Source: Escherichia phage pinkbiff. Taken from it: a DNA stretch of 64,000 nt. Position 1 is the first letter of the stretch. Every line of letters begins with the position of its first letter. The notes under the pieces are model-generated. The model searched no databases, was not told the DNA's origin, and saw only the letters and a list, made by a program, of their open reading frames with translations. The DNA lies in sequence record MN850603.1. One strand, 5' to 3'. Made by a program: the position numbers and the translations under genes. Shown here in pieces: positions 2,796 through 13,475 of the stretch.

Positions 2796-2871
2796 TGGAG
2801 AATCCGAAGGGACTTGAACCCTTATAAACCTGTTTTGCAGACAGGCACATAGCCATTTCTGTCACGGATTC
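2796..2871 (-). tRNA. tRNA-Cys (GCA)
   Basis: Manual cloverleaf: T-loop TTCAAGT, 7-bp acceptor stem, encoded CCA, anticodon loop CTGCAAA. Confidence 0.75.
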
Positions 2872-2875
2872 AAAT

Positions 2876-2968
2876 TGGAGGAAGATACCAGACTTGAACT
2901 GGTACACCGATTTCTCAGCTACTGGCAGTTTAGCAAACTGCTCCCTTACCTTTTAGGGTTAATCTTCC
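2876..2968 (-). tRNA. tRNA-Ser (GCU), type II
   Basis: 93 nt, long variable arm, T-loop TTCAAGT, CCA encoded, anticodon loop TTGCTAA. Confidence 0.75.
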
Positions 2969-2969
2969 A

Positions 2970-3704
2970 TTATTTCTGCAATGCGTTCTTCATTTCTGGT
3001 GTTGCAATAGAATCGATTACACCAGTTTTACAAGCATCATCAAACCAGTCTGGTAAGATACCTGCTAAGAACCCATTGATATTCGTTTTAAGGTACTCTG
3101 CAATAAGGGCAGCTTCTTCTTCAATCATCTGCACAACTTCATCTGCATAAGCTGTAATCTTTGAAATACCTTCATTAATCTTACTAACAGCTTGGTTAGC
3201 TAAATCAGAAATAGTATCAAGACCTTTATCAATAGCATCCTGTAAGTCACTTAACACATCATTAACACCATCTAGTGTACTGTTAATCGTATCCATAGCT
3301 TTTTGACCATACTCTGTAGCAACACCCATAATACCACTAAACGGTGTACAGCCAACTTGCTCTCCTGCTGCACCCATAACATTGGAATAACCTTTTGCTA
3401 CCTGCATACGTGATGAGAACTCATCAATGGACTTTTGACCGTAATCTGTCAGCGTCTTAGTAGTTGATGTAGTGCTTGTCAGACTCGTTGTAAAGCCATT
3501 AAGCAGAACTGTTGTAAGTCCAGCAGCAACAAGCTTATCCTTTACTGTAGGGTCTGATACAGAGCTAATAGAGTTTACAAGTGATGTAGAGGCAGCTACG
3601 GTTCCACCGAGAACTGCTGCACCAGTAATAAGGGGATTAGAAAACCCTCTACCGGTTTTTAAGAGATTGAAAATCTCCTTACCTTGTTCTGTCATCTCTT
3701 TCAT
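2970..3704 (-). CDS. hypothetical protein (244 aa) embedded in tRNA cluster
   Basis: Long minus ORF; start set to ATG at 3704 because the track start (3767) would overlap the next tRNA. Thr/Ser-rich low-complexity stretches; no motif recognised. Confidence 0.55.
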   Translation of the reverse strand: MKEMTEQGKEIFNLLKTGRGFSNPLITGAAVLGGTVAASTSLVNSISSVSDPTVKDKLVAAGLTTVLLNGFTTSLTSTTSTTKTLTDYGQKSIDEFSSRMQVAKGYSNVMGAAGEQVGCTPFSGIMGVATEYGQKAMDTINSTLDGVNDVLSDLQDAIDKGLDTISDLANQAVSKINEGISKITAYADEVVQMIEEEAALIAEYLKTNINGFLAGILPDWFDDACKTGVIDSIATPEMKNALQK

Positions 3705-3720
3705 TAAGCACCTTTGAAAT

Positions 3721-3796
3721 TGGTAGTCCAGTGGGATTTGAACCCTATTCTCATGTTTTTCAGACACGCGCTTTAACCATATAAGCTACTTGGACT
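3721..3796 (-). tRNA. tRNA-Phe (GAA)
   Basis: T-loop TTCAAAT, CCA encoded, anticodon stem-loop CGTGT-CTGAAAA-ACATG; acceptor/T-stem pairing imperfect, ends approximate. Confidence 0.6.
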
Positions 3797-3802
3797 ATAA
3801 AT

Positions 3803-3878
3803 TGGGGTGACCTACGGGATTTGAACCCGTATAGACCATGTTCACAGCATGGGTCATTACCATTTATGATAAGGCCAC
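3803..3878 (-). tRNA. tRNA-His (GUG)
   Basis: T-loop TTCAAAT, 7-bp acceptor with one G-U, CCA encoded, anticodon loop CTGTGAA. Confidence 0.75.
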
Positions 3879-3909
3879 ATTTAAGGCCTCTCGTAAGAAC
3901 CCTTAGAAG

Positions 3910-3985
3910 TGGCAGCGGCATAAGGATTTGAACCTTAATAGGACAGCTTCAGAGACTGCTGCATTGCCAGTTATGCTATACCGCT
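3910..3985 (-). tRNA. tRNA-Gln (CUG)
   Basis: D-stem GCAT/ATGC, T-loop TTCAAAT, CCA encoded, anticodon loop CTCTGAA. Confidence 0.65.
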
Positions 3986-3990
3986 AAATT

Positions 3991-4069
3991 TGGTACTCCA
4001 TATCGGATTCGAACCGATACATAACACAGATTTTAAGTCTGGCCTCTCTGCCAATTGGAGTAATGGAGC
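3991..4069 (-). tRNA. tRNA with anticodon UAA (Leu-type anticodon; short variable arm)
   Basis: T-arm ATCGG-TTCGAAT-CCGAT, 7-bp acceptor, A73, CCA; anticodon loop CTTAAAA. 79 nt with no long variable arm, so isotype needs confirmation. Confidence 0.55.
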
Positions 4070-4071
4070 AT

Positions 4072-4147
4072 TGGCGGGGGATGTTGGAATTGAACCAACT
4101 TCTTCGATTTCAAAGACCGAGGTTTTAACCTTGTAAACTAATCCCCT
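4072..4147 (-). tRNA. tRNA-Gln (UUG)
   Basis: T-arm GTTGG-TTCAATT-CCAAC, D-arm GTTT/AAAC, anticodon loop CTTTGAA; 1:72 unpaired. Confidence 0.7.
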
Positions 4148-4155
4148 TTAAATCT

Positions 4156-4713
4156 TTACTTTCTCAGTGGATGAATAAAGAATGCCAACATAACTCTTTC
4201 CCTTGAGAATGCTCTTTCTTCTGGGACAACACTTTTTAGTTTCCATCCAACATAGATTCTCCAGTAAAACTGTTTACCAAAGACTTTAATTGACGGAATA
4301 AAAGCGAATAATCCCCAAGCATTGTTGTTCCACATTAGGAGATAACCTGTCTGATTATCTTCGGGGTCAGAACTTACGTTGATATTACCTTTCCACTTAG
4401 TAACATCTTTTACATCTCTTCCTAATACATGGTAAGAGAAGTTATAAGCTTTGTTTCTCCAGAGCCATCCGACTCTCTGCATGTAGACACCCAGCTTACC
4501 AATCTTTCTAATCTTAGCCCATCTTTTAACGTGACCCTCATCACCATCAATTGGGTTGTCATATGTCTCCATCCATCTGAACCCGAAAGGTAAGTGTCCT
4601 TTCTTCTCACTGTAGAATGGAACTACAAAAGGTGCTAAGATAACTGCTAAGATTGCTGCAAATGGCTCTAACAAAGCTAAGAAAATCCATGAAGCATACT
4701 TCAAATATCTCAT
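4156..4713 (-). CDS. hypothetical membrane protein (185 aa)
   Basis: ATG at 4713 with AAGAGG SD; hydrophobic N-terminal segment. Confidence 0.6.
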   Translation of the reverse strand: MRYLKYASWIFLALLEPFAAILAVILAPFVVPFYSEKKGHLPFGFRWMETYDNPIDGDEGHVKRWAKIRKIGKLGVYMQRVGWLWRNKAYNFSYHVLGRDVKDVTKWKGNINVSSDPEDNQTGYLLMWNNNAWGLFAFIPSIKVFGKQFYWRIYVGWKLKSVVPEERAFSRERVMLAFFIHPLRK

Positions 4714-4732
4714 CTAAATAGCCTCTTTAAAT

Positions 4733-4808
4733 TGGCGCAGGATAAGGGATTCGAACCCCTATTAACAGCTTCGTAGACTGTTGCTCTATCCATTTGAACT
4801 AATCCTGC
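4733..4808 (-). tRNA. tRNA-Arg (ACG)
   Basis: T-loop TTCGAAT, 7-bp acceptor, CCA encoded, anticodon stem-loop ACAGT-CTACGAA-GCTGT. Confidence 0.75.
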
Positions 4809-4922
4809 TTACCTACGAGAACACCATACAGTTTTTCACAAACTTTGTTTTTACGTCTGTTTAGGTATGACGCTCTAAACTTTTTTGCGATGGAGTTATT
4901 ACTCATGGTGCTCTCCTCAAAT

Positions 4923-5000
4923 TGGTGTTCCAAGACGGATTCGAACCGTCACTAATACAAGGTTTGAGCTTGCATCCTCTGCCAATTGGGATACTGGAAC
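4923..5000 (-). tRNA. tRNA with anticodon CAA (Leu-type anticodon; short variable arm)
   Basis: T-arm GACGG-TTCGAAT-CCGTC, acceptor 7 bp, A73, CCA; anticodon loop CTCAAAC; 78 nt. Confidence 0.55.
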
Positions 5001-5001
5001 A

Positions 5002-5076
5002 TGGTACTCACTAAAGGACTTGAACCTTTTTCTTCATCTTGTAAGGGTGATGTTTTACCATATAAACTAAGCGAGT
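5002..5076 (-). tRNA. tRNA-Val (UAC)
   Basis: T-loop TTCAAGT, acceptor 7 bp incl. G-U, CCA encoded, anticodon loop CTTACAA. Confidence 0.7.
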
Positions 5077-5171
5077 GTGAAAGAGGTCTGAAGTTGTGCC
5101 GCTAACTCAACTCCGTGGAATTTGTTACGGTCTTCAGTTGACACCAGCGGTCTTTCACTTGACCTCTGAAT
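5077..5171 (-). other. unassigned structured spacer (tRNA-like/ncRNA candidate)
   Basis: 95-nt gap between tRNA-Val and tRNA-Thr flanked by complementary ends (agaggtc ... gacctct); no canonical T-loop found. Confidence 0.25.
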
Positions 5172-5247
5172 TGGTGCTCCCACAAGGATTCGAACCCTGA
5201 TAAGTTGCTTACAAGGCAACCGTAATAGCCAATTATACGATAGGAGC
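5172..5247 (-). tRNA. tRNA-Thr (UGU)
   Basis: T-loop TTCGAAT, CCA encoded, perfect anticodon stem GTTGC/GCAAC with loop CTTGTAA. Confidence 0.78.
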
Positions 5248-5254
5248 ATTAATT

Positions 5255-5329
5255 TGGAGCATCCAGAGGGAATCGAACCCTCAACCTCAGTTTGGAAGAC
5301 TGTAATTTTCCCGTTTAAACTATGGATGC
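5255..5329 (-). tRNA. tRNA-Gly (UCC)
   Basis: T-arm GAGGG-TTCGATT-CCCTC, acceptor GCATCCA/TGGATGC, CCA encoded, anticodon loop CTTCCAA. Confidence 0.78.
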
Positions 5330-5335
5330 ACTAAT

Positions 5336-5411
5336 TGGTGGAGAAGCAGGGAATTGAACCCTGTACTTAAGTTTGCAAAACTTATGTTTTAACCATGTAA
5401 ACTACATCCCC
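5336..5411 (-). tRNA. tRNA-Ala (UGC)
   Basis: Acceptor stem with G3:U70 (Ala identity pair), A73, CCA; anticodon stem TAAGT/ACTTA with loop TTTGCAA. Confidence 0.8.
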
Positions 5412-5417
5412 AATGTC

Positions 5418-5493
5418 TGGTACAGGTGGAGGGAATTGAACCCGTCGTCTTACTGATTAAGAGTCAGCCGCATAACCATTTTGCTACACCTGC
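5418..5493 (-). tRNA. tRNA-Lys (CUU)
   Basis: T-loop TTCAATT, CCA encoded, anticodon loop CTCTTAA; T-stem has two mismatches. Confidence 0.65.
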
Positions 5494-5500
5494 ATTAATT

Positions 5501-5578
5501 TGGTGGGAGACAAGGGATTCGAACCCTCAAACATCTCGTTCTAAGCGAGATAGGTTTACCAATTACCATCAATCTCCC
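5501..5578 (-). tRNA. tRNA with anticodon UAG (Leu-type anticodon; short variable arm)
   Basis: T-arm GAGGG-TTCGAAT-CCCTT, acceptor 7 bp, A73, CCA; anticodon stem TCTCG/CGAGA with loop CTTAGAA; non-canonical D region. Confidence 0.55.
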
Positions 5579-5833
5579 ATTAAATCTTTTTAGAGAACTT
5601 CTAAGAACCTAAGCAACAAGGTTCCACAACAAGCTGTAATAACCTTAGAAGCCCTCTAAAAAGACCTAAAAAGGTCTTTGCATAGTCTTGTTTAATCCGG
5701 TGACTAGAACCTTTGGAGAGCTTGATATTATCTCTTCTCCGTGACACCTACTAGGTGTTTTATCAGTGTGTACGACAATACACGAGGGATACCAAAGCAA
5801 CATCCGAATGAAGCTTGGCTTTAAATCTTATTA

Positions 5834-5923
5834 GGCGGTAAGTAAAGGAGTCGAACCCTCACCGTATCTCTACAGTGGCAACTGTTTTCAAGACAGTTTG
5901 GCTACCATTAGCCGCTACCTACC
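5834..5923 (-). tRNA. tRNA-Ser (UGA), type II
   Basis: About 88 nt, long variable arm, T-loop TTCGACT, perfect anticodon stem ACTGT/ACAGT with loop CTTGAAA; 3' end reads GCC-T, so CCA not fully encoded. Confidence 0.7.
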
Positions 5924-5936
5924 CCTAATAAGACTT

Positions 5937-6019
5937 TGGCATGGGACGGAGGAGTTGAACCCCTTTGAAACGGTTTTGGAGGCCGTTGCTCATGCCTTAG
6001 AGTCTTAACATCGTCCCAT
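5937..6019 (-). tRNA. tRNA-Trp (CCA) candidate, atypical D region
   Basis: Perfect 7-bp acceptor ATGGGAC/GTCCCAT, T-loop TTCAACT, CCA encoded, anticodon loop CTCCAAA; 83 nt with an over-long D region. Confidence 0.5.
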
Positions 6020-6160
6020 ACTATAATTCGAAGCTTACCGTATTATCTCAACACTGTAAAGCTCCTTCTCAGGTTATTTACATGTTCTGGAAACATGAGA
6101 TACAGACCACCTCCCTACAGGAAGACCCGCTTAGGTCGTCTAAGTAATCTGCTAACTAAT

Positions 6161-6237
6161 TGGCACACCCTACAGGATTCGAACCTGTAACTCAATGATT
6201 AGAAGTCATTTGCTCTGTCCAGTTGAACTAAGGGTGC
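6161..6237 (-). tRNA. tRNA-Arg (UCU)
   Basis: D-arm GTTC/GAGC, anticodon stem AATGA/TCATT with loop CTTCTAA, T-loop TTCGAAT, CCA encoded. Confidence 0.78.
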
Positions 6238-6573
6238 ATTAATCTTTAAAGACTCTCTTAGAAAGCCCTTAAAGATGCCCACCTTATTAATCATACCGTG
6301 GGCTAGTACGCCAAATTCTTTGATGAGGGATTGGAAGACCTCACTGGTGTTTAGCCTATCAAGCTACTGCCAGAAAAACATTGTCGTTTGCATTTATTTT
6401 AAATTTGCAAAATAGACGCTACGCAACGAAAACTATTCAGAATATGTACAACAAATTTCCCCACATTGTGTTACGTCTAACACTCATGTATTGGTGTTTG
6501 AATTATACATATTATGAAGTATTTTAGTTACTATAAAGTAGTCACATCTCAATGTCAACAACTTTATTGAAAT

Positions 6574-6649
6574 TGGTACTGGTAGGTGGAATCGAACCAC
6601 CGATGTTCCCTTATCAGGGGAGTGTTATAACCTTCTTAACTATACCAGC
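6574..6649 (-). tRNA. tRNA-Ile (GAU)
   Basis: T-arm GGTGG-TTCGATT-CCACC, CCA encoded, anticodon loop CTGATAA. Confidence 0.72.
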
Positions 6650-6650
6650 T

Positions 6651-6727
6651 TGGAGGTTCAGATGGGAATCGAACCCACATTCATAGGGTTTATGAGACCC
6701 TTGCATTACCTTATCTGCGACTGAACC
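6651..6727 (-). tRNA. tRNA-Met (CAU), elongator-like
   Basis: Perfect acceptor GGTTCAG/CTGAACC, anticodon stem AGGGT/ACCCT with loop CTCATAA, T-loop TTCGATT, CCA encoded. Confidence 0.75.
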
Positions 6728-6731
6728 ATAT

Positions 6732-6807
6732 TGGTAGAAGTGGAGGGATTCGAACCCATCGCCTGTCAGATTAAAAGTCTGCCGCATCACCATTCTGCTA
6801 CACTTCC
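6732..6807 (-). tRNA. tRNA-Lys (UUU)
   Basis: Anticodon loop CTTTTAA, T-loop TTCGAAT, CCA encoded; T-stem imperfect. Confidence 0.68.
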
Positions 6808-6810
6808 ATT

Positions 6811-6956
6811 AAATTATCTTTGTAGATAAGCTACCCAGACTTGCTTAAGGTCTGTAGCGATGTGCCTTTTTGGGTTTAAATCTAGAATTTACCCTTTCAC
6901 CCTTTGTGGTCGCATACTCACAGGTAAGCTTAATAACTTATCTACAAAGATAATTA
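6811..6956. repeat. 18-bp perfect inverted repeat flanking about 108 nt inside the tRNA cluster
   Basis: attatctttgtagataag (6813-6830) and its reverse complement cttatctacaaagataat (6938-6955); no tRNA fold found between them. Confidence 0.6.
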
Positions 6957-7004
6957 CCAGACCGTTGTTTATCATCTTAAGTGCTACCATTACACCAACT
7001 CGAC

Positions 7005-7035
7005 CTCTGCCGAGTGAAGGAATCGAACCTTCTCC
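7005..7035 (-). other. isolated tRNA T-arm-like element (possible tRNA remnant)
   Basis: GAAGG-TTCGATT-CCTTC T-arm followed by a 7-nt acceptor-like strand, but no matching 5' half in the expected position. Confidence 0.3.
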
Positions 7036-7239
7036 TTTTCTTTACCGAGAAATAGATTGTTTAAGTTTTGCTGTAAACGGTCTTCTGTAAATTTGTTGAG
7101 CCAGACCAAGTTTTAAATTTTTTTCAAAATTGAATTGGCTTGAAAATATCATACGTACTTGCTGTATTTGGTCTTCTGCCCCTTTAAAGAATACTCGTAA
7201 GAACTCTTTAAGGGAGGGGCTAAATAGCCCTCTCAAAAT

Positions 7240-7317
7240 TGGCGGTTACGAAGGGATTTGAACCCTCATCATCTCCCGTGACAGGGGAGTATTTTAACCA
7301 AATTAAACTACATAACC
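7240..7317 (-). tRNA. tRNA-Asp (GUC)
   Basis: Perfect anticodon stem CTCCC/GGGAG with loop CTGTCAC, T-loop TTCAAAT, CCA encoded. Confidence 0.75.
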
Positions 7318-7322
7318 TTTAT

Positions 7323-7410
7323 TGGTGTGCCGTGTAGGAGTCGAACCTACCGAGTCTCAATGACAAGGGATTTACAGTCCCCACCGCTACCATCTACGGG
7401 ATAACGACAC
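7323..7410 (-). tRNA. tRNA-Tyr (GUA), type II
   Basis: 88 nt, long variable arm, anticodon stem GGGGA/TCCCT with loop CTGTAAA, T-loop TTCGACT, CCA encoded. Confidence 0.72.
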
Positions 7411-7478
7411 ATTTAATTTCTATTCAGGCTAAGGACTTGCACCTTACAAATCGGTGAGCAATCGCTTCTCTCCTAAAT
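7411..7478 (-). other. unassigned 68-nt spacer with variant T-arm-like hairpin
   Basis: AAGG-TGCAAGT-CCTT hairpin but no complete cloverleaf. Confidence 0.2.
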
Positions 7479-7479
7479 T

Positions 7480-7556
7480 TGGCGGTTAGTCAGGGATTCG
7501 AACCCTGTGCCATTCGCTTAACAGGCGACCGCACATACCTTATGTGCTTCCTAACC
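7480..7556 (-). tRNA. tRNA-Asn (GUU)
   Basis: D-arm GCAC/GTGC, T-arm CAGGG-TTCGAAT-CCCTG, CCA encoded, anticodon loop CTGTTAA. Confidence 0.72.
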
Positions 7557-7639
7557 ATGTTTAGTATTACCAGACCGTATCTTTCAATTTTTCCGCTAAA
7601 AATTTAATAAATATTGCTGTAAACGGTCTTCTGTAAATT

Positions 7640-7716
7640 TGGAGGCGGGTGCAGGAGTCGAACCTGCCGATACCATGCTAATGAGACATGTGAGACGCCC
7701 TTTCTCTATACCCGCA
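7640..7716 (-). tRNA. tRNA-Met (CAU), second copy (initiator or Ile2-type possible)
   Basis: T-loop TTCGACT, CCA encoded, anticodon loop CTCATTA, 1:72 unpaired (T:C). Confidence 0.6.
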
Positions 7717-7806
7717 ATTCTTAATGACCAGACCAAATATCTTCTTTGTCCGATTTCGTGTCAGATGAGTAGATTAAGTTTGCTGTAATTGGTCTTCTGT
7801 CAAAAC

Positions 7807-7884
7807 TGGCGTTCCAGAAGGGATTTGAACCCTCAAATATCCACTTTGAAAGAGTGGTGACTTTACCATTTTGTCTACTGGAAC
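7807..7884 (-). tRNA. tRNA-Glu (UUC)
   Basis: Perfect acceptor GTTCCAG/CTGGAAC, anticodon stem CCACT/AGTGG with loop CTTTCAA, T-loop TTCAAAT, CCA encoded. Confidence 0.75.
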
Positions 7885-7891
7885 ATTAATT

Positions 7892-7968
7892 TGGTCTCTG
7901 TTGGAGGACTTGAACCTCCGGCCTTACCGCCCCAAACGGAACGCTCTACCAAGCTGAGCTAAACAGAG
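7892..7968 (-). tRNA. tRNA-Pro (UGG)
   Basis: Canonical D-arm GCTC-AGCTTGGTA-GAGC, T-arm GGAGG-TTCAAGT-CCTCC, CCA encoded, anticodon loop TTTGGGG. Confidence 0.75.
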
Positions 7969-8086
7969 ATAAACTTTTCAAACTCTATGTAACCACTTTA
8001 ACATTATTTTTTAGTGATTGTCAAGAACTTTTTTAAAATATTTTTCAGTATCTTAGAAAAGCTCTCATTTCGTTTCTATGTAGAAC

Positions 8087-8115
8087 ATATTAAAGGGTAT
8101 CAAACACATTGTCAA
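8087..8115 (-). promoter_or_regulatory. near-consensus sigma70-type promoter reading into the tRNA cluster
   Basis: Minus strand reads TTGACA (8115-8110), 17-nt spacer, TAATAT (8092-8087); overlaps an inverted repeat aaagggtat/atacccttt; about 120 nt upstream of tRNA-Pro. Confidence 0.5.
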
Positions 8116-8133
8116 TACCCTTTTTAAAACTTT

Positions 8134-9549
8134 TTACCAGATGTAACGGTCAATCATTACTGCTTTGAGCATTACACTGATTGGGTCAAACTTCTCACCA
8201 CCAAGCAAAGCTTTTAAAGTGGCTGGAGAGAAACCAGATACCATTGCTACACCGTTATCCTTAACAGACACTTCGCAAGTACCATTACGGTTTGCTAAGT
8301 ACCAGAATACCAGTTGTGGCATTTCGTATCCAGCTTTCTTGTACTTACTCTGAATTGCTTCAAAGTTTGTACGACCGTTAGCTCCATCAACCTGATTGAA
8401 CTCCATATCAGAGAAGATGATAAGCTTACTTGGCATATCTTTCTGAGTCAAGTTGTTTCTTTTACCTACCTCAAGAATGCGGTCAAAAGCTGCCTGTAAG
8501 TTAGTTGAGCCATATTCAACGTGTCGCATCACCTGACGATGACGGTTTCGTAAATCACCACTCAGTTCAATGAAGTGAGGGTTTGTTGAATAAACCATCA
8601 ACTCATCCTTAAAGCAACCTGTATTGCGTTCTGCTACATACAAGGCAAGTGATACGCCAATATCAAGGGCAGTGATTGAACCAAGATTCACCCAAGACAT
8701 TGAGCTTGAAACATCAGTCATACACAAGATGTTCTCACCTTCTGCCATCCAGTTTGGTAGTGCTTTCCACTGCTCATTGGCAACATCTGCATTACCATGC
8801 TTGATAGACTTAATCACATCGTATGGATAAACAGCACCAGCGTTAATCTTAGACTCACCCTTTGAGAGTGATTCGATGTAAGCTTTGTAACGTTCTCCAT
8901 CTTTGCGGTTAAAGAGCTTTTGGTAACGTGCAGCAGCGAGTGAAGGAATCTTGCTGTAGTCAATCTTACCAAACTCATTAGCAGAGATTTTTTGCTCAAC
9001 CGTATCAGACAGTGCAGATAACAGTGTGCGGTACTCTTTCTCACTCAAGTTGGCAAACTTGCAGAAACGTTTTACAAACTGCTTATGACGTGGTTTGACT
9101 CGTGGTAACCACTTAGCTGCCAAACCTGCTGTTGCAGGGTCTAGTAATGCTGCCTCTAAATGTTTGAAGGCATCCGTCTCGAAACGAGTACCTACGAAGA
9201 TTTTGAAGTCATCAAAACGACCAAGTTCTGCAATCTTATCCATAATGCGAAGAACCTGTGTAGGCTCTAAAACTTTATCTTCAATTGCTTGAAGTAAAAC
9301 AGTTCGGAAAGCTTTACGCTCACCCATACCTTCCCGTACATCTCGCATATGCAGTAAAATACGAACTGCAACATCAACATCCTCATGCAAAGCTTTGTAG
9401 AACAGGTCTGGTAAGATTTCTACATTGCTACGGCTTGAGCCAGCGGCTTTGTAAAAGTCTACCAGAGCAGACATTGATGAAGTATGGTTTACAGCACCAT
9501 TTTCAGTCCGACCTGCATGAAGGTGTGCATGTTTAAATAACTCGCTCAT
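8134..9549 (-). CDS. vWA-domain protein with MIDAS motif (471 aa); Ro60/TROVE-like architecture possible
   Basis: ATG at 9549 with GGAGAG SD; C-terminal region carries DxSxS (DVSSSMS) and a downstream SDMEF, typical of von Willebrand A metal-ion-dependent adhesion sites; helical N-terminal 280 aa. Confidence 0.7.
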   Translation of the reverse strand: MSELFKHAHLHAGRTENGAVNHTSSMSALVDFYKAAGSSRSNVEILPDLFYKALHEDVDVAVRILLHMRDVREGMGERKAFRTVLLQAIEDKVLEPTQVLRIMDKIAELGRFDDFKIFVGTRFETDAFKHLEAALLDPATAGLAAKWLPRVKPRHKQFVKRFCKFANLSEKEYRTLLSALSDTVEQKISANEFGKIDYSKIPSLAAARYQKLFNRKDGERYKAYIESLSKGESKINAGAVYPYDVIKSIKHGNADVANEQWKALPNWMAEGENILCMTDVSSSMSWVNLGSITALDIGVSLALYVAERNTGCFKDELMVYSTNPHFIELSGDLRNRHRQVMRHVEYGSTNLQAAFDRILEVGKRNNLTQKDMPSKLIIFSDMEFNQVDGANGRTNFEAIQSKYKKAGYEMPQLVFWYLANRNGTCEVSVKDNGVAMVSGFSPATLKALLGGEKFDPISVMLKAVMIDRYIW

Positions 9550-9628
9550 ATTTACTCTCCTCTCTCGTTGTTGTTTGATGTGACAGACTTTAGAGCAACT
9601 TTGTAGAGTCTGTCAACACCTTTTAAAA

Positions 9629-10000
9629 TTATTTTTTGAGAGTCGCTACAGCAGAAAACGTTGGTTTGTTATCTGTCTGGGTTTGACCACCATTATCGGG
9701 GGTCTTCTTAGTGTCTGCTGCAATCGCTTTCATCTCACCTGCTGAGTGGGTCATGATAGTTTTACCAGCTTCCATCATCGACTTCAGGTTTACATCGTCA
9801 GTCGTCAAACCGAACTCTGCAAGCTTAGCAGCATCCCTTGTAACAATCGCCTCAAACAACTTTGCAGCAAACTCAGCAGAATTATCAATGGTCAGTTGAG
9901 CTTTTACGAGTGAGCTTTTGTTACGAGAGCCTTTTGGTCTTCCAGATGGGTTTCCAGACTGGCCTTTTTTAAACTGGCCTTTGTTTGTTCTGTTTTTCAT
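9629..10000 (-). CDS. hypothetical basic protein (123 aa)
   Basis: ATG at 10000 with AAGAGG SD; N-terminal Gly/Lys/Arg-rich segment. Confidence 0.6.
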   Translation of the reverse strand: MKNRTNKGQFKKGQSGNPSGRPKGSRNKSSLVKAQLTIDNSAEFAAKLFEAIVTRDAAKLAEFGLTTDDVNLKSMMEAGKTIMTHSAGEMKAIAADTKKTPDNGGQTQTDNKPTFSAVATLKK

Positions 10001-10175
10001 TGGTATGCCTCTTATAAGACCTCTTAAAAGGCTTTTAAGATAAAAGATAGATATCCAGAAAGATATCTGTTTAAATAGCCTTTTTAGAGGAACCTTTTAA
10101 GTTATCTTCTAAGTATTTATAAGCCTACACCTTGTCAAGTACTTTGTCAACAACTTTTTTAACTTGCAATAGTTC

Positions 10176-10204
10176 TTGACTTGTTGTATGGATTACTGTA
10201 CCAT
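10176..10204 (+). promoter_or_regulatory. candidate promoter for the plus-strand operon
   Basis: TTGACT (10176-10181), 17-nt spacer, TACCAT (10199-10204), about 45 nt upstream of the first plus-strand ORF. Confidence 0.3.
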
Positions 10205-10249
10205 CTTACTTAAAGCTGTAGGTCTGCCTTGTTCTACAAAGGAGACTTA

Positions 10250-10411
10250 ATGAGGAAATCAAATAAACCGAAGAAAGGTAAGAATACCAATCACTGTAAG
10301 GAATCAAAAAGGGTAGAATTAATCTACTATTCATCCTCTGAAATTGGTCTGTACCTGTTCTTTCAAAATTACAGAAGACAAGAGGATTATCTATGTGTAG
10401 TTCCCAATTAG
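10250..10411 (+). CDS. hypothetical small basic protein (53 aa)
   Basis: ATG at 10250 preceded by AAGGAGA; track ORF starts at an upstream TTG. Confidence 0.4.
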   Translation: MRKSNKPKKGKNTNHCKESKRVELIYYSSSEIGLYLFFQNYRRQEDYLCVVPN

Positions 10412-10626
10412 AAATCGCAGATATTATAGACTTATATCAAACTGCAAAGAGTCATGGCTATATAACCTCAATTGGAAAGAATAGTCACTATGATGCTTTG
10501 ACTGGAATGTATTTCAGGGCAATGGCTCAATCTAGTGAACAACACTTAGTGGTTTCTTCCAGTGAGTTTACTTCGTTTCTCTATTGCAGCAAAATTATAA
10601 ATCGCAGGAGAACTGAAAAATGTTAA
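10393..10626 (+). CDS. hypothetical protein (77 aa)
   Basis: ATG with AAGAGGA SD; overlaps neighbours by a few nt (operon-like packing). Confidence 0.5.
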   Translation: MCSSQLEIADIIDLYQTAKSHGYITSIGKNSHYDALTGMYFRAMAQSSEQHLVVSSSEFTSFLYCSKIINRRRTEKC

Positions 10627-11210
10627 CAGTAAGTTTTAATTACAATAGTGATGGCTCTGTATCAATTAACTCACCATATGCAAATGACCTACTTAAAGAG
10701 CTAGTCAGTCAGTGTGAGCGGGGTCTTCACTATGTTCAAAATTCTTTTAAACAGAAGACTATTGCTAATAACTTGATGCGTGTAACAGTGACGGCATCGA
10801 ATCCAAACTATGACTTTGATAGTGAAAGTCCATACTCATTAGTTGCGCTTGGAGAGTCCAGCCAATTCAAACTTGTTTGCCACGACTCAGAAACATTCCT
10901 TAAGGTATTTTCCAACCTTACCCATAATAATAAGTACAGCTACGTTGATGGTAGTGTAAACTTCTATCCAGCAAACTATACATGTTTGTTGACTGATAAT
11001 ATGAGAAAAAGTAAGCAAGAACCTACAGAAATTTCATTTGATGTGAACTCTAGTCCAGACGCAGAAACAAGTAAGAACTTTGATATGAGTTACGCATTGT
11101 CACTTAGTAAGAAATCCGAGTTCATTGATTATGTCAATGGATTTGGTTTTAAGTTTGATGAGAGTATGAATCTTAAAAAACTTAAGAACCTACTTAAGAC
11201 TAAAGCTTAA
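10620..11210 (+). CDS. hypothetical protein (196 aa)
   Basis: ATG 10620 with AGGAGA SD. Confidence 0.6.
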   Translation: MLTVSFNYNSDGSVSINSPYANDLLKELVSQCERGLHYVQNSFKQKTIANNLMRVTVTASNPNYDFDSESPYSLVALGESSQFKLVCHDSETFLKVFSNLTHNNKYSYVDGSVNFYPANYTCLLTDNMRKSKQEPTEISFDVNSSPDAETSKNFDMSYALSLSKKSEFIDYVNGFGFKFDESMNLKKLKNLLKTKA

Positions 11211-11257: not shown

Positions 11258-11629
11258 ATGAAAGCTAAGAGTGCAAAAGACTTTTATTGCTTCCTACAAT
11301 CCTATATCAATTCCGTGCAAAATGGTGAAAGGTACAACCTTAATGATGTTATCCCAACACCTTTGACATGGAGACTCAGCAAATGGCCTGAAGAAGATAT
11401 TACACCAACAAGCGAACAACGCACCTACAAACCTGAAATCAATATTCCAGACTCTGAGAATCTACTATATCCAATGTTCCATATTGTTGGTCTTGGAAGA
11501 TTCCTTATGGATATCCAGTATGTAATTGGTAAGGGTTATAAGGTTAAAGGTATTGTTGTTGGTGATGTATCTCCACATCACAAAGGTTATTTTAGACTAA
11601 ACGCACATTTAGAGGCTAAAAAGAAATGA
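11258..11629 (+). CDS. hypothetical protein (123 aa), paralog of the N-terminal domain of the next gene
   Basis: ATG with AAGGA SD; shares a conserved motif (W-P-E-x-D-I ... F-x-M-D-x-Q-Y) with residues 1-120 of the 11626..13011 product. Confidence 0.6.
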   Translation: MKAKSAKDFYCFLQSYINSVQNGERYNLNDVIPTPLTWRLSKWPEEDITPTSEQRTYKPEINIPDSENLLYPMFHIVGLGRFLMDIQYVIGKGYKVKGIVVGDVSPHHKGYFRLNAHLEAKKK

Positions 11630-13011
11630 TTAAAGCAAAGACTTACCCAGACTTCAAAGAGTTTGTGAAGGGCTTCATTGCAAACGTAAAAGCTGGTAAG
11701 AGATATGATTTTAGAGCATATCAAGAGGCTATTTTACCGCTTACCTATAGTTCGTATTGGCCTGAAGCTGATATTGCAGAAGTTGAGGAGTTTGACTACA
11801 AACCAGACTACAAAGTTCCATTTAGTGATGAGTTGCTTTACAGCATTGGTGCTCAAATGAGAACTTCTGACTTCTTCATGGACTTACAATATGCAATTAT
11901 CAATGGTAAAGACGTTGACACAATTTATTGTGAATGGCTGGCAAGAGTTAAACCATTCTCAATGTTGAATGCTAAGTTGAAGGATGCTATCAAGCCACCA
12001 GCAATCACTCAGCAACCAACCAATCAAACAGTAAATGAAGGTGACACACTTACCCTAAGTGTTATTGCAACTAATGCCACTGGATATCAATGGAAAAAGG
12101 GTGGTGAGGATATCACTAGCGCCACATCTGCAACCTACACAAAACAGTCTGTAGCACCTTCTGATGCAGGTTCATACACTTGTGTTGTATCTGGAGAGGC
12201 TGGAACAAGTGTTACCTCAGATGCGGCAACAGTTACTGTCAACGCACTGCCTGTGATTACACAGCAACCTTCTAGCCAGACCATCAATGAGGGTGGGAAC
12301 ATTAACTTGGAAGTGACTGCAACAGGTGCAACAGGTTATCAGTGGAAGAAAGATGGCTCTGACATCCCTTCAGCTACAGAGGCTACCTATAGCAAGTCTG
12401 GTGCGCTGCCAGCAGATGCAGGTTCATACACTTGCGTTGTAACAGGTGCAGGTGGTTCTGTTACTTCTAGCCCTGCAACTGTCACGGTAAATGCTTTGCC
12501 AGTTATTACCAAGCAGCCAACCAATCAGGTAGTTAATGAGGGTAGCTCTTTGACACTGAGTGTTGAGGCGACAGGTGCGGAAGGTTATCAGTGGAAAAAG
12601 GACGATGTGAACATCCCTAGTGCAACTGGTGCGACTTACACGAAAGCTAACGCAGTTCCTGACGATGCTGGTTCATATACCTGTGTAGTTACTGGTGCTG
12701 GTGGTACAACAGTCACATCTAATGCTGCAACAGTTACTGTGAATGCACTTCCGGTAATCACTCAACAGCCAACCAATCAAGAAACCAATGAAGGTGAGAC
12801 CTTAACGCTGAATGTTGTAGCAACAGGTGCAACAGGTTACCAGTGGAAGAAAGGTGAGGAAGACATCCTCGATGCAACTACTGCAACTTACACCAAAGAA
12901 GGTGCAACCGCTGCTGATTCAGGAAGCTACACCTGTGTAGTTACTGGTGCAGGTGGCTCTGTAACATCTAATGCAGCAACAGTTACTGTTAACCCAGCAG
13001 GGGAGGCATAA
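11626..13011 (+). CDS. Ig-like (I-set-type) tandem-repeat protein (461 aa)
   Basis: N-terminal paralog domain followed by four tandem repeats of about 84 aa, each with P-V-I-T-Q-Q-P ... G-Y-Q-W-K-K ... A-G-S-Y-T-C-V-V. Confidence 0.75.
   Translation: MIKAKTYPDFKEFVKGFIANVKAGKRYDFRAYQEAILPLTYSSYWPEADIAEVEEFDYKPDYKVPFSDELLYSIGAQMRTSDFFMDLQYAIINGKDVDTIYCEWLARVKPFSMLNAKLKDAIKPPAITQQPTNQTVNEGDTLTLSVIATNATGYQWKKGGEDITSATSATYTKQSVAPSDAGSYTCVVSGEAGTSVTSDAATVTVNALPVITQQPSSQTINEGGNINLEVTATGATGYQWKKDGSDIPSATEATYSKSGALPADAGSYTCVVTGAGGSVTSSPATVTVNALPVITKQPTNQVVNEGSSLTLSVEATGAEGYQWKKDDVNIPSATGATYTKANAVPDDAGSYTCVVTGAGGTTVTSNAATVTVNALPVITQQPTNQETNEGETLTLNVVATGATGYQWKKGEEDILDATTATYTKEGATAADSGSYTCVVTGAGGSVTSNAATVTVNPAGEA
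11995..13005 (+). repeat. four tandem direct repeats of about 250 bp each (encode the Ig-like domains)
   Basis: Near-periodic recurrence of ...gttactgt(c/g)aa(c/t)gca(c/t)t(g/t)cc(t/a/g)gt(g/a/t)at(t/c)ac... and ggtta(t/c)cagtggaa(a/g)aa at about 250-bp spacing. Confidence 0.75.
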
Positions 13012-13475
13012 TGCAACTCTCAAGAAAAGGCTTAGATGCTATTAAGTTCTTTGAAGGTCTGAAGTTAGAGGCTTACGAAGACTCTGCCGGAATCCCAACA
13101 ATCGGGTATGGTACAATCCGTATTGACGGAAAACCTGTTAAGATGGGTATGAAAATTACTGCTGAACAAGCTGAACAGTATCTTCTCGCAGATGTTGAAA
13201 AGTTCGTTGCAGCAGTGAACAAATCCATCAAGGTTCCAACTTCCCAGAATGAGTTTGACGCACTTGTAAGTGAAACATACAACATTGGCATCACAGCTAT
13301 GCAGGACTCTACATTTATTAAGCGCCACAACGATGGCAATAAGGTAGGTTGTGCAGAAGCTATGCAATGGTGGAACAAGGTTACAGTCAAAGGTAAGAAG
13401 GTCACTTCAAACGGTCTTAAAAACAGACGTAGAATGGAAGCTGACATTTATCTTGACAGTGTATATCCAAAGTAA
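13011..13475 (+). CDS. endolysin, T4-lysozyme-like (GH24)
   Basis: N-terminal F-E-G-L-K-L-E-A-Y-E-D-S-A-G-I-P-T-I-G-Y-G-T matches the Glu/Asp/Thr catalytic region of T4-type lysozymes; GGGGAGG SD. Confidence 0.85.
   Translation: MQLSRKGLDAIKFFEGLKLEAYEDSAGIPTIGYGTIRIDGKPVKMGMKITAEQAEQYLLADVEKFVAAVNKSIKVPTSQNEFDALVSETYNIGITAMQDSTFIKRHNDGNKVGCAEAMQWWNKVTVKGKKVTSNGLKNRRRMEADIYLDSVYPK

Follow-up and report, generated by a model that had tools for sequence, protein, structure and literature searches.

Whether a phage gene coding for a Ro60-like protein comes with RNA partners of its own, and where these would be encoded, is the question raised by a locus of Escherichia phage pinkbiff, namely the gene at positions 8134-9549 in a 64,000-nucleotide (nt) stretch of sequence record MN850603.1, the whole of which we call the window, and the tRNA cluster that adjoins it. 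A preliminary description of the gene, made from the sequence alone, had proposed a possible Ro60-like RNA-binding protein with tRNA-like Y RNAs in unassigned spacers of the cluster. Here, we find that the product is a very divergent Ro60 homologue carried under parallel Pfam labels, as judged from partial sequence homology and predicted fold, and we describe four small RNA elements, E1-E4, which appear to be candidate RNA partners of the protein and are what is new in this account. We think it probable that the locus is a phage version of the Ro60/Y RNA ribonucleoprotein (RNP), in which the divergent Ro60-type protein would bind E1-E4 through a stem and motif that they share, referred to below as the handle. 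The fold, the partial sequence homology, the structure and covariation of the RNAs and their genetic linkage to the gene are supported here, and an anti-Ppl phenotype is already published (PMC11482910).

A very divergent Ro60 homologue

The protein matches two Pfam families above their gathering scores, DUF2828 (PF11443; 103 bits) in its N-terminal part followed by DUF7788 (PF25043; 149 bits) in its C-terminal part, and over its full length it matches PHROG 850, labelled 'RNA-binding protein', with an expectation value (E) of 3e-183. The residues of a metal ion-dependent adhesion site (MIDAS) in a von Willebrand A (vWA) domain, D279-V-S281-S-S283 and S380-D381-M-E-F, are present in the translation, and in a family alignment of 45 sequences with a mean column identity of 53% the complete site (D279, S281, S283, T349 and D381) is invariant. 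An AlphaFold2 model built from 45 homologues is confident, with a predicted local distance difference test score of 88.4 and a predicted template modelling (TM) score of 0.89, its secondary structure being all-helical to about residue 265 and alpha/beta thereafter.

Comparison of this model with the PDB by Foldseek places Ro60/TROVE structures at each of ranks 1 to 11, namely Xenopus and human Ro60, Deinococcus Rsr and the Ro60 of Thermus phage phiLo, all aligned over the full length (514-560 columns; E 9e-9 to 6e-7; TM-scores 0.48-0.65). Further down the ranking follow matches to the vWA domain only, at E >= 1e-3, and below E 1e-6 only Ro60 structures are found. The overall fold is thus predicted to be Ro60-like, a helical-repeat, ring-like domain followed by vWA, and the resemblance of residues 1-230 to Ro60 is at the level of this modelled fold only. 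Homology in sequence is seen further along the chain, where alignment by hhalign of the family profile with a Ro60 profile (20 bacterial TROVE proteins plus human Ro60) pairs residues 232-452 with residues 305-529 of Rsr (91% probability, E 9.8e-7), the aligned part being a helix with the Ro60 RIHP motif and the entire vWA domain.

Other searches at the sequence level returned less. In Pfam terms bona fide Ro60 is PF05731 plus PF25045, whereas the DUF2828-type family is PF11443 plus PF25043; the TROVE model (PF05731) matches neither the window protein nor any of the 45 family members at E <= 10, and the vWA_Ro60 model (PF25045) gives weak matches in nine of the 45, with VWA_2 and CoxE-type vWA models also matching the family weakly. 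A phmmer search of the PDB with the single protein gave no match, an hmmsearch of the PDB with the family profile found no Ro60 or anything else, an NCBIfam search with the protein gave nothing or very little pointing toward Ro60, and hhalign against the single human Ro60 sequence reached only 31% probability, on the vWA domain. The helical N-terminal region, the C-terminal vWA domain with its complete MIDAS and the Ro60/Rsr domain order set out in the preliminary description are thereby borne out by the open reading frame (ORF), the invariant residues, the modelled secondary structure, the 11 best structural matches and the profile alignment. Its broader proposal of a Ro60-like RNA-binding protein stands as regards fold and vWA homology and has to be amended as regards family, since DUF2828 plus DUF7788, and not TROVE, is the best profile match; RNA binding is putative.

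At the protein level the Ro60 reading is correct and not new, having already been published or annotated for the family. The gene is the orthologue of gp043 of Escherichia phage vB_EcoM_Alf5, named "RNA-binding protein" in RefSeq and "vWFA protein" or "hypothetical protein" in other records, and of gp130 of Bas63 (JohannRWettstein), a published counter-defence protein against Ppl, a bacterial defence (PhageMaP preprint, PMC11482910). Bas63, a sister Felixounavirus, carries its gene 130 (MZ501086) at the same place upstream of tRNA-Pro, and 461 of 471 residues (98%) are identical to those of the window protein. Bas63 gp130 is non-essential; its deletion leads to smaller plaques on Ppl-carrying cells, complementation restores them, and T7 overcomes Ppl once gp130 is supplied, whether by a plasmid or by its own genome (PMC11482910). 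This anti-Ppl counter-defence, in the 98%-identical orthologue, is the only demonstrated function. The same authors noted "high structural similarity to Ro60" and speculated that some annotated tRNAs may be Y RNAs (PMC11482910). Annotators of actinobacteriophages already call the homologue 'Ro-like RNA binding protein', and the copy of mycobacteriophage Archie carries the two DUF domains of the window protein.

The gene is present in 299 phage records at the DNA level and in 709 at the protein level, so the ORF is not there by chance, and the protein family accounts for >2,262 clusters in a metagenome protein database. The DNA at 7000-11000 of the window is 99% identical to that of Alf5 and 95-99% identical to that of about 150 other Felixounavirus genomes.

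Structured RNA elements between the tRNA genes

The four elements lie 0.34-1.2 kb downstream of the Ro60-like gene, on the same strand and within the tRNA cluster (Table 1). All begin with GAAGACC(R)(W)(W)UACAGCAA, and they share a covarying 7-bp stem, P1, together with UUACAGCAA. The longest, E4, was discovered via a T-loop motif at 7028-7020, outside the called tRNAs, and consists in order of a T-arm (GAAGG-UUCGAUU-CCUUC), a stem (ACUCGGC/GUCGAGU) closed by AGAG, a U and a D-arm, all enclosed by a stem of the 5' and 3' ends. A permuted tRNA-like module of T-arm, acceptor stem-loop and D-arm defines the bacterial YrlA Y RNAs (PMC4201824), and E4 has this layout inside a long terminal stem, with UUACAGCAA in the place of the GNCGAAN0-1G motif; all four elements also lie within the 4 kb of the Ro gene, on its strand, that are expected of YrlA. 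E1 fills the 90-nt gap between tRNA-Glu and tRNA-Met and E2 the 83-nt gap between tRNA-Met and tRNA-Asn, with 5-9 nt to spare on each side, from which we infer that normal processing of the adjoining tRNAs would set them free.

In a scan with a purpose-written program, many unrelated viral contigs proved to have the E4-like arrangement beside their DUF2828 genes, in the orientation of the gene and clear of called tRNAs. These related elements carry a 5' motif, UUUCAGCAA or UUACAGCAA, preceded by 6-9 nt complementary to a stretch 3' of the D-arm. A MAFFT alignment of the long forms was dropped, the acceptor-like stem being misaligned and RNAalifold returning only the T and D arms, and a hand-structured seed and covariance models were therefore used instead. 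The long-form model, R1, was built from that seed, and recovered long elements together with shorter ones reduced to the stem and the motif, two of these being further elements of the window; for a second model, R2, a MAFFT alignment of 22 diverse short elements was used. The E-values of these models are rough, their calibration having been shortened.

In the alignment of the 22 short elements, 99.4% of the P1 cells are paired and compensatory double changes occur in six of the seven pairs (59 cells), a result reached by none of 500 shuffles; when the P1 partners are slid by 1-3 columns pairing drops to only 30-44%, and RNAalifold, unaided, predicts the same stem. As the sequences in this set had been picked by a structure-aware model, a test using the CAGCAA motif as sequence only was also run. 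Within 700 nt of the gene, 49.6% of gene-strand CAGCAA sites have a perfect 6-nt complement at the expected downstream place, where chance would give about 4%. Four of the five control categories gave 2-6%; reported separately are the distant sites on the gene strand (14.7%), some of which belong to real distal elements, and the sites near the gene on the opposite strand (18.2%, 4/22). On the minus strand of the window, which has 32 CAGCAA sites, E1-E4 and one other pass the test.

The tRNA-like module is supported in a similar way. Pairing in a set of 19 long forms holds at 95/95 positions of the T stem, 68/75 of the D stem and 129/133 of the acceptor-like stem, the last in 19 different sequences, and across the Ounavirinae the acceptor-like stem changes in a compensated manner, from ACUCGGC/GUCGAGU in the window to ACACG../..CGUGU in SUSP1 and Sf15 and ACCCUUC/GAAGGGU in Moogle. 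Long forms permuted in silico, by cutting at the acceptor loop and rejoining, are called as tRNAs by ARAGORN in 15 of 15 cases, a lenient test because many junctions were tried. The Rfam YrlA model (RF02553) matches long forms at two other loci, L071 and L025, with 39 bits (E 5e-5 and 4e-5; 1.7e-7 in a local search); these scores are below the 69-bit gathering score, and the T-arm, acceptor stem-loop, D-arm and inner stem align while the GNCGAA stem does not. In an Rfam scan at E <= 1 there was no Y RNA or YrlA match.

Two further features of the motif were considered and rejected. A pseudoknot between UUAC and a 3' tail GUAA fails on geometry and has no covariation. A reading of TTTACA as a -35 promoter element is set aside on the grounds that other lineages have UUUCAGCAA or UAACAGCAA at this place, with covarying flanks.

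Linkage to the gene family and genomic surroundings

The RNA family follows the gene well beyond the Felix O1-like phages. In 923 kb searched on both strands, R2 gave 82 matches at E <= 1, 80 of them on the gene strand. At 75 non-Ounavirinae loci from viral contigs, whose proteins are 39-48% identical to the window protein, a gene-strand element at E <= 0.01 is present in 48, and within 600 nt of the gene in 41, with no element at that threshold on the opposite strand. More distant proteins, 26-33% identical, are flanked by elements in phages of Mycobacterium, Listeria, Staphylococcus and Bacillus. In Mycobacterium phage Archie, short, long and short elements follow directly 3' of the stop codon, their first stem pair being U-A and not A-U, a compensated change; Listeria LMTA-34 has three elements just upstream of the gene, Staphylococcus S-CoN_Ph5 three in tandem downstream of it, and Bacillus Tsamsa elements that include a long form filling a tRNA spacer, and elements likewise stand beside the gene in Pseudomonas Milchi and Sinorhizobium phiM12. 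A 50-kb control stretch of T5, which includes a 25-tRNA cluster and stable RNAs and has no homologue of the window protein, gave no R2 match below E 0.19 and no R1 match below E 2.9. At one locus (L035, 5732-5840) the stem and CAGCAA handle encloses an ordinary, non-permuted tRNA-Thr (ARAGORN, 5753-5824), which suggests that cargo RNAs of different kinds can be joined to the handle.

Adjacency to tRNA genes is frequent and not universal, a tRNA lying within 6 kb of the gene, always on the same strand, in about 28 of the 75 loci. No protein neighbour is conserved across lineages, the largest cluster reaching 19 of the 75 loci and being lineage-specific (ClpP, DnaJ, RNase HII and similar). In Listeria phage LMTA-34 (L090) a gene for RtcB, a 'tRNA splicing ligase', lies 1.3 kb downstream of the Ro-like gene. 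Between the tRNAs and the Ro-like gene of this phage lies a large RNA that resembles ROOL, its score (88.5 bits, E 9e-17) falling slightly short of the gathering score; 2428-2979 and 6808-8019 are the stretches listed for this RNA and the RtcB gene. Group I intron matches occur near the Ro-like gene and tRNA arrays at L025 (11696-11922, 71.5 bits) and L063 (4253-4443, 40.9 bits).

Table 1. Coordinates of the Ro60-like gene, the RNA elements and associated features in the window
Feature	Position	Strand	Details
Ro60-like protein gene	8134-9549	minus	471 aa, ATG start; DUF2828 helical-repeat N-domain and DUF7788 vWA with MIDAS
E1, short Y-like RNA	7797-7722	minus	R1 34.9 bits, E 5e-4; R2 49.7 bits, E 4e-9; sequence-motif test; fold
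E1 parts	P1 7795-7789 / 7736-7730; CAGCAA 7785-7780	minus	P1 AGACCAA / UUGGUCU; UUACAGCAA loop
E2, short Y-like RNA	7631-7564	minus	R1 42 bits, E 1.5e-5; R2 55.9 bits, E 1e-10; sequence-motif test; fold
E2 parts	P1 7629-7623 / 7578-7572; CAGCAA 7619-7614	minus	P1 AGACCGU / ACGGUCU
E3, short Y-like RNA	7176-7095	minus	R2 26.1 bits, E 0.007; sequence-motif test
E3 parts	P1 7174-7168 / 7109-7103; CAGCAA 7164-7159	minus	P1 AGACCAA / UUGGUCU; internal hairpin
E4, long YrlA-like RNA	7085-6951	minus	purpose-written scanner; R1 154 bits; fold z-score -2.6; compensatory changes across Ounavirinae
E4 outer stem	P1 7083-7076 / 6966-6959; CAGCAA 7073-7068	minus	P1 AGACCGUU / AACGGUCU
E4 tRNA-like module	7032-7016; 7015-6998; 6995-6981	minus	T-arm; 7-bp acceptor-like stem with AGAG loop; D-arm
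Promoter-like site 5' of gene	9616-9587	minus	sigma-70-type, TTGACA-18-TAAAGT; from consensus scan, consensus match only
Shine-Dalgarno-like purine-rich stretch	9566-9555	minus	GAGAGAGGAGAG; seen in the sequence itself
Hairpin directly 3' of stop codon	8123-8092	minus	12 pairs
Promoter-like site overlapping the hairpin	8115-8087	minus	TTGACA-17-TAATAT; consensus match only
Second promoter-like site, before tRNA cluster	8024-7995	minus	consensus match only
tRNA cluster	2796-7968	minus (gene strand)	26 genes; ARAGORN and Rfam; E1-E4 embedded in promoter-proximal part
tRNA-Pro	7968-7892	minus	165 nt downstream of Ro60-like gene, same strand

That the gene abuts the tRNA cluster, as the preliminary description had it, is confirmed by the distance and strand of tRNA-Pro and the 26 tRNAs called. 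The Y RNA partners it had looked for in the spacers are found in the form of four conserved structured RNAs, one with its parts in the order of YrlA, which are candidate partners and differ from expectation in the motif that they carry. It had also placed a sigma70-type promoter at 8087-8115, overlapping a hairpin downstream of the gene; both are present, the hairpin just past the stop codon, and the region 8087-8123 is likely to be the start of the tRNA/Y-like RNA operon. Promoter-like sites in the region number 12, against 9.9 +/- 3.6 in shuffles, and are thus not above the shuffled expectation, so that the site in question counts as a consensus match only.

Within the cluster, the tRNA-Met(CAT) gene flanked by E1 and E2 (7640-7716, minus strand) is called by ARAGORN in the window and by tRNAscan in Sf15; it is divergent, with only 15.9 bits (E 4.6) from the tRNA-Sec model of Rfam and no entry in the list at E <= 1. 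A tRNA-like gene missed by ARAGORN lies at 5935-6026 (minus strand), with the T-loop GTTCAACTC, a 7-bp acceptor stem (ATGGGAC/GTCCCAT) and GCCA encoded at the 3' end; its anticodon arm is irregular and may present a CCA (Trp) anticodon, and the Rfam match is only a weak tRNA-Sec-like one at 5943-6017 (23 bits, E 0.85). The minus-strand spacers at 6238-6573 (336 nt) and 5579-5833 (255 nt) have no R1 or R2 match; the only signals in these spacers are a promoter-like site at 6558-6530, which is strong (TTGACA-17-TATAGT), and a very weak match to transfer-messenger RNA (15 bits) at 6238-6427.

On the other side, a 123-residue DUF5681 protein (phrog_4114) with a basic N-terminal KGQSGNPSGRPKG motif is encoded at 9629-10000 (minus strand), immediately 5' of the Ro-like gene, and is conserved among the Ounavirinae and not in other lineages. 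Further away, at 11626-13011 (plus strand), a 461-residue protein with four tandem Ig-like repeats of about 90 residues, called 'immunoglobulin-like domain protein' in Bas63, is encoded directly upstream of the endolysin gene (13011-13475).

Readings of the locus and its relation to known Ro60 systems

As we picture the phage RNP, the gene would supply the divergent Ro60-type protein, with its helical-repeat, ring-like N-domain and its vWA/MIDAS domain, and the tRNA operon starting just after the gene would also yield E1-E4, freed from the inter-tRNA spacers by tRNA processing. The shared handle, a 7-8-bp stem that opens with conserved A-U and G-C pairs, followed on the 5' side by UUACAGCAA with its putatively single-stranded UWACAGCAA, would be the most likely binding site of the protein, and the cargo it carries would vary, being a hairpin in E1-E3 and a circularly permuted tRNA-like domain in E4, as in bacterial YrlA. 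The RNAs would probably gate, target or tether the ring, and the tRNA mimic may recruit or decoy tRNA-binding factors. Binding of the RNAs by the protein, their release by tRNA processing and the function of the particle are thus steps that we infer.

Several observations weigh against this picture. The first 230 residues of the protein have no sequence-level similarity to TROVE by Pfam, PDB profile search or hhalign, which aligns nothing before residue 232. On the RNA side, E4 is missed by the Rfam YrlA model even when the window is searched at E <= 10, the minus strand in and near the cluster lacks the canonical GNCGAAN0-1G Ro-binding motif, and P1 of the short elements is, unusually for an RNA stem, free of G-U pairs. 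The sequences counted for covariation were initially chosen with a structure-aware model, a bias countered by the sequence-only CAGCAA test. No element was detected in 27 of the 75 loci, nor in Vibrio phage D481, and a clear element is likewise wanting in Campylobacter among the phages examined. Lastly, gp130 alone, from a plasmid or the T7 genome, is enough to counter Ppl (PMC11482910), so the phage RNAs are not needed for the anti-Ppl phenotype; either that activity does without them, or host RNAs can take their place, or their role is a different one.

This last result, namely the rescue of T7 on Ppl-carrying cells by gp130 alone (PMC11482910), speaks for a protein acting on its own, as an inhibitor whose MIDAS face blocks Ppl or another host factor, with the CAGCAA elements being unrelated or regulating its gene. 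A MIDAS is a classical protein-ligand site and is invariant here, and the loci that lack a detectable element would find a ready account. Nonetheless, we regard such an inhibitor as unlikely, given that the RNA family tracks the gene in phages whose hosts are Proteobacteria, Firmicutes and Actinobacteria, with the strand always that of the gene and the distance usually no more than 600 nt, that the predicted resemblance to Ro60 runs across the whole fold, beyond the vWA domain, and that host RNAs could have replaced the phage RNAs in the T7 experiment. Rather less probable again is that the CAGCAA stems are cis-acting signals, such as processing sites, stabilisers or autoregulatory untranslated-region elements of the tRNA operon or the DUF2828 mRNA, and not free Y-type RNAs. 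Their places in inter-tRNA spacers and beside gene ends would suit such signals, as would the handle that brackets an ordinary tRNA-Thr at L035, but the elements stand upstream or downstream of the gene in one to seven copies per locus, some of them up to several kb away inside tRNA arrays and some with a complete tRNA-like module that is YrlA-like to Rfam, and the tRNA cluster of T5, in a stretch without a homologue of the gene, has no element.

We give very little credence to an ordinary vWA protein, whether structural or a cofactor of a MoxR-type chaperone, with a superficial resemblance to Ro60. The bare label 'vWFA protein' in some records and the weak matches to VWA_2 and CoxE-type models are what such a protein would lead one to expect; the structural match, however, spans both domains and is exclusive to Ro60 below E 1e-6, the Bas63 orthologue is a non-essential counter-defence gene (PMC11482910), and an AAA+ MoxR partner gene is missing, the adjacent genes being those of the DUF5681 protein and the tRNAs, with no conserved ATPase neighbour in the 75 loci.

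Returning to the phage RNP, a wider proposition can be put forward tentatively, as one that is plausible and on which we would not yet insist: DUF2828-type Ro proteins and CAGCAA-handle RNAs may together make up a widespread, previously undescribed phage RNP that runs parallel to Ro60/Y RNA with its own recognition code. The handle would load interchangeable cargo (hairpins, permuted tRNA mimics and whole tRNAs), and the particles, used by phages that infect Gram-negative, Gram-positive and actinobacterial hosts, may act during infection by sensing, shielding or decoying RNAs, and so underlie the anti-Ppl effect. No RNA partner for the DUF2828 family is on record in Rfam 15 or the literature searched, and no description of CAGCAA-stem RNAs was found in Rfam 15 or the searchable literature (DUF2828, YrlA, Ro-like, Ppl).

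Ro60/Y RNA particles have long been a puzzle to RNA biology and to the study of autoimmunity, and phage versions have been examined only recently. A Ro60-like protein with a published counter-defence phenotype can now be matched with candidate RNA partners whose coordinates are exact and whose motif is simple and can be mutated, which turns the published speculation on tRNAs as Y RNAs into directly testable candidates. Several "empty" spacers are explained in the tRNA clusters of Felix O1-like phages, which number in the hundreds and serve in typing and therapy, and a family-wide annotation rule follows for >700 phage genomes with DUF2828 genes. The handle-plus-cargo arrangement, if true, would also offer a natural scaffold for placing tRNA-like RNAs on a protein ring.

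The systems with which this locus is best compared are the bacterial rsr loci with their YrlA and YrlB RNAs, the TROVE-type mycobacteriophage ET08 and the phiRo60 of Thermus phage phiLo with its Yrl1 and Yrl2 (PMC4201824, PMC12135203). Within its own family (DUF2828 plus DUF7788, PHROG 850 or 'Ro-like') the window protein is a full-length, high-scoring member with no difference at the protein level, and the departure from the Bas63 study, which identified no RNA and suggested annotated tRNAs as Y RNAs, lies in the candidates, which here are located in unannotated spacers. Small non-tRNA RNAs within a phage tRNA cluster are also known from T5 (RNA1, RNA2 and other stable RNAs, 'tRNA-like'), but these are matched by neither R1 nor R2, and the T5 stretch examined encodes no DUF2828 homologue. 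In that stretch (L096, 10284-13949) several RNAs of the cluster bear the annotation 'stable RNAs with unknown functions', in some cases with a tRNA-like label, and by both models they are unrelated to the CAGCAA family.

The likeness to Ro60/Rsr with YrlA and YrlB covers the predicted two-domain fold of a helical-repeat ring and a vWA domain with MIDAS, and the presence within 4 kb, on the same strand, of several small RNA genes, one permuted and tRNA-like and the shorter ones sharing with it only the putative protein-binding stem. An RtcB ligase gene nearby, as in some of the phages, is likewise a feature of bacterial Ro60 loci, where rsr stands in an operon with yrlA/yrlB and rtcBA. In M. 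smegmatis, YrlA is cut by RNase P at its acceptor-like loop and receives CCA. Unlike those systems, the window protein has no Pfam TROVE match and an N-domain alike only in fold, the RNAs sit within the spacers of a tRNA operon, relatives of E4 score below the YrlA gathering threshold in Rfam while E4 itself has no match, and the handle is a stem initiated by A-U and G-C pairs with UWACAGCAA in place of GNCGAAN0-1G. E1-E4 follow the logic of YrlA and YrlB with a different putative recognition motif.

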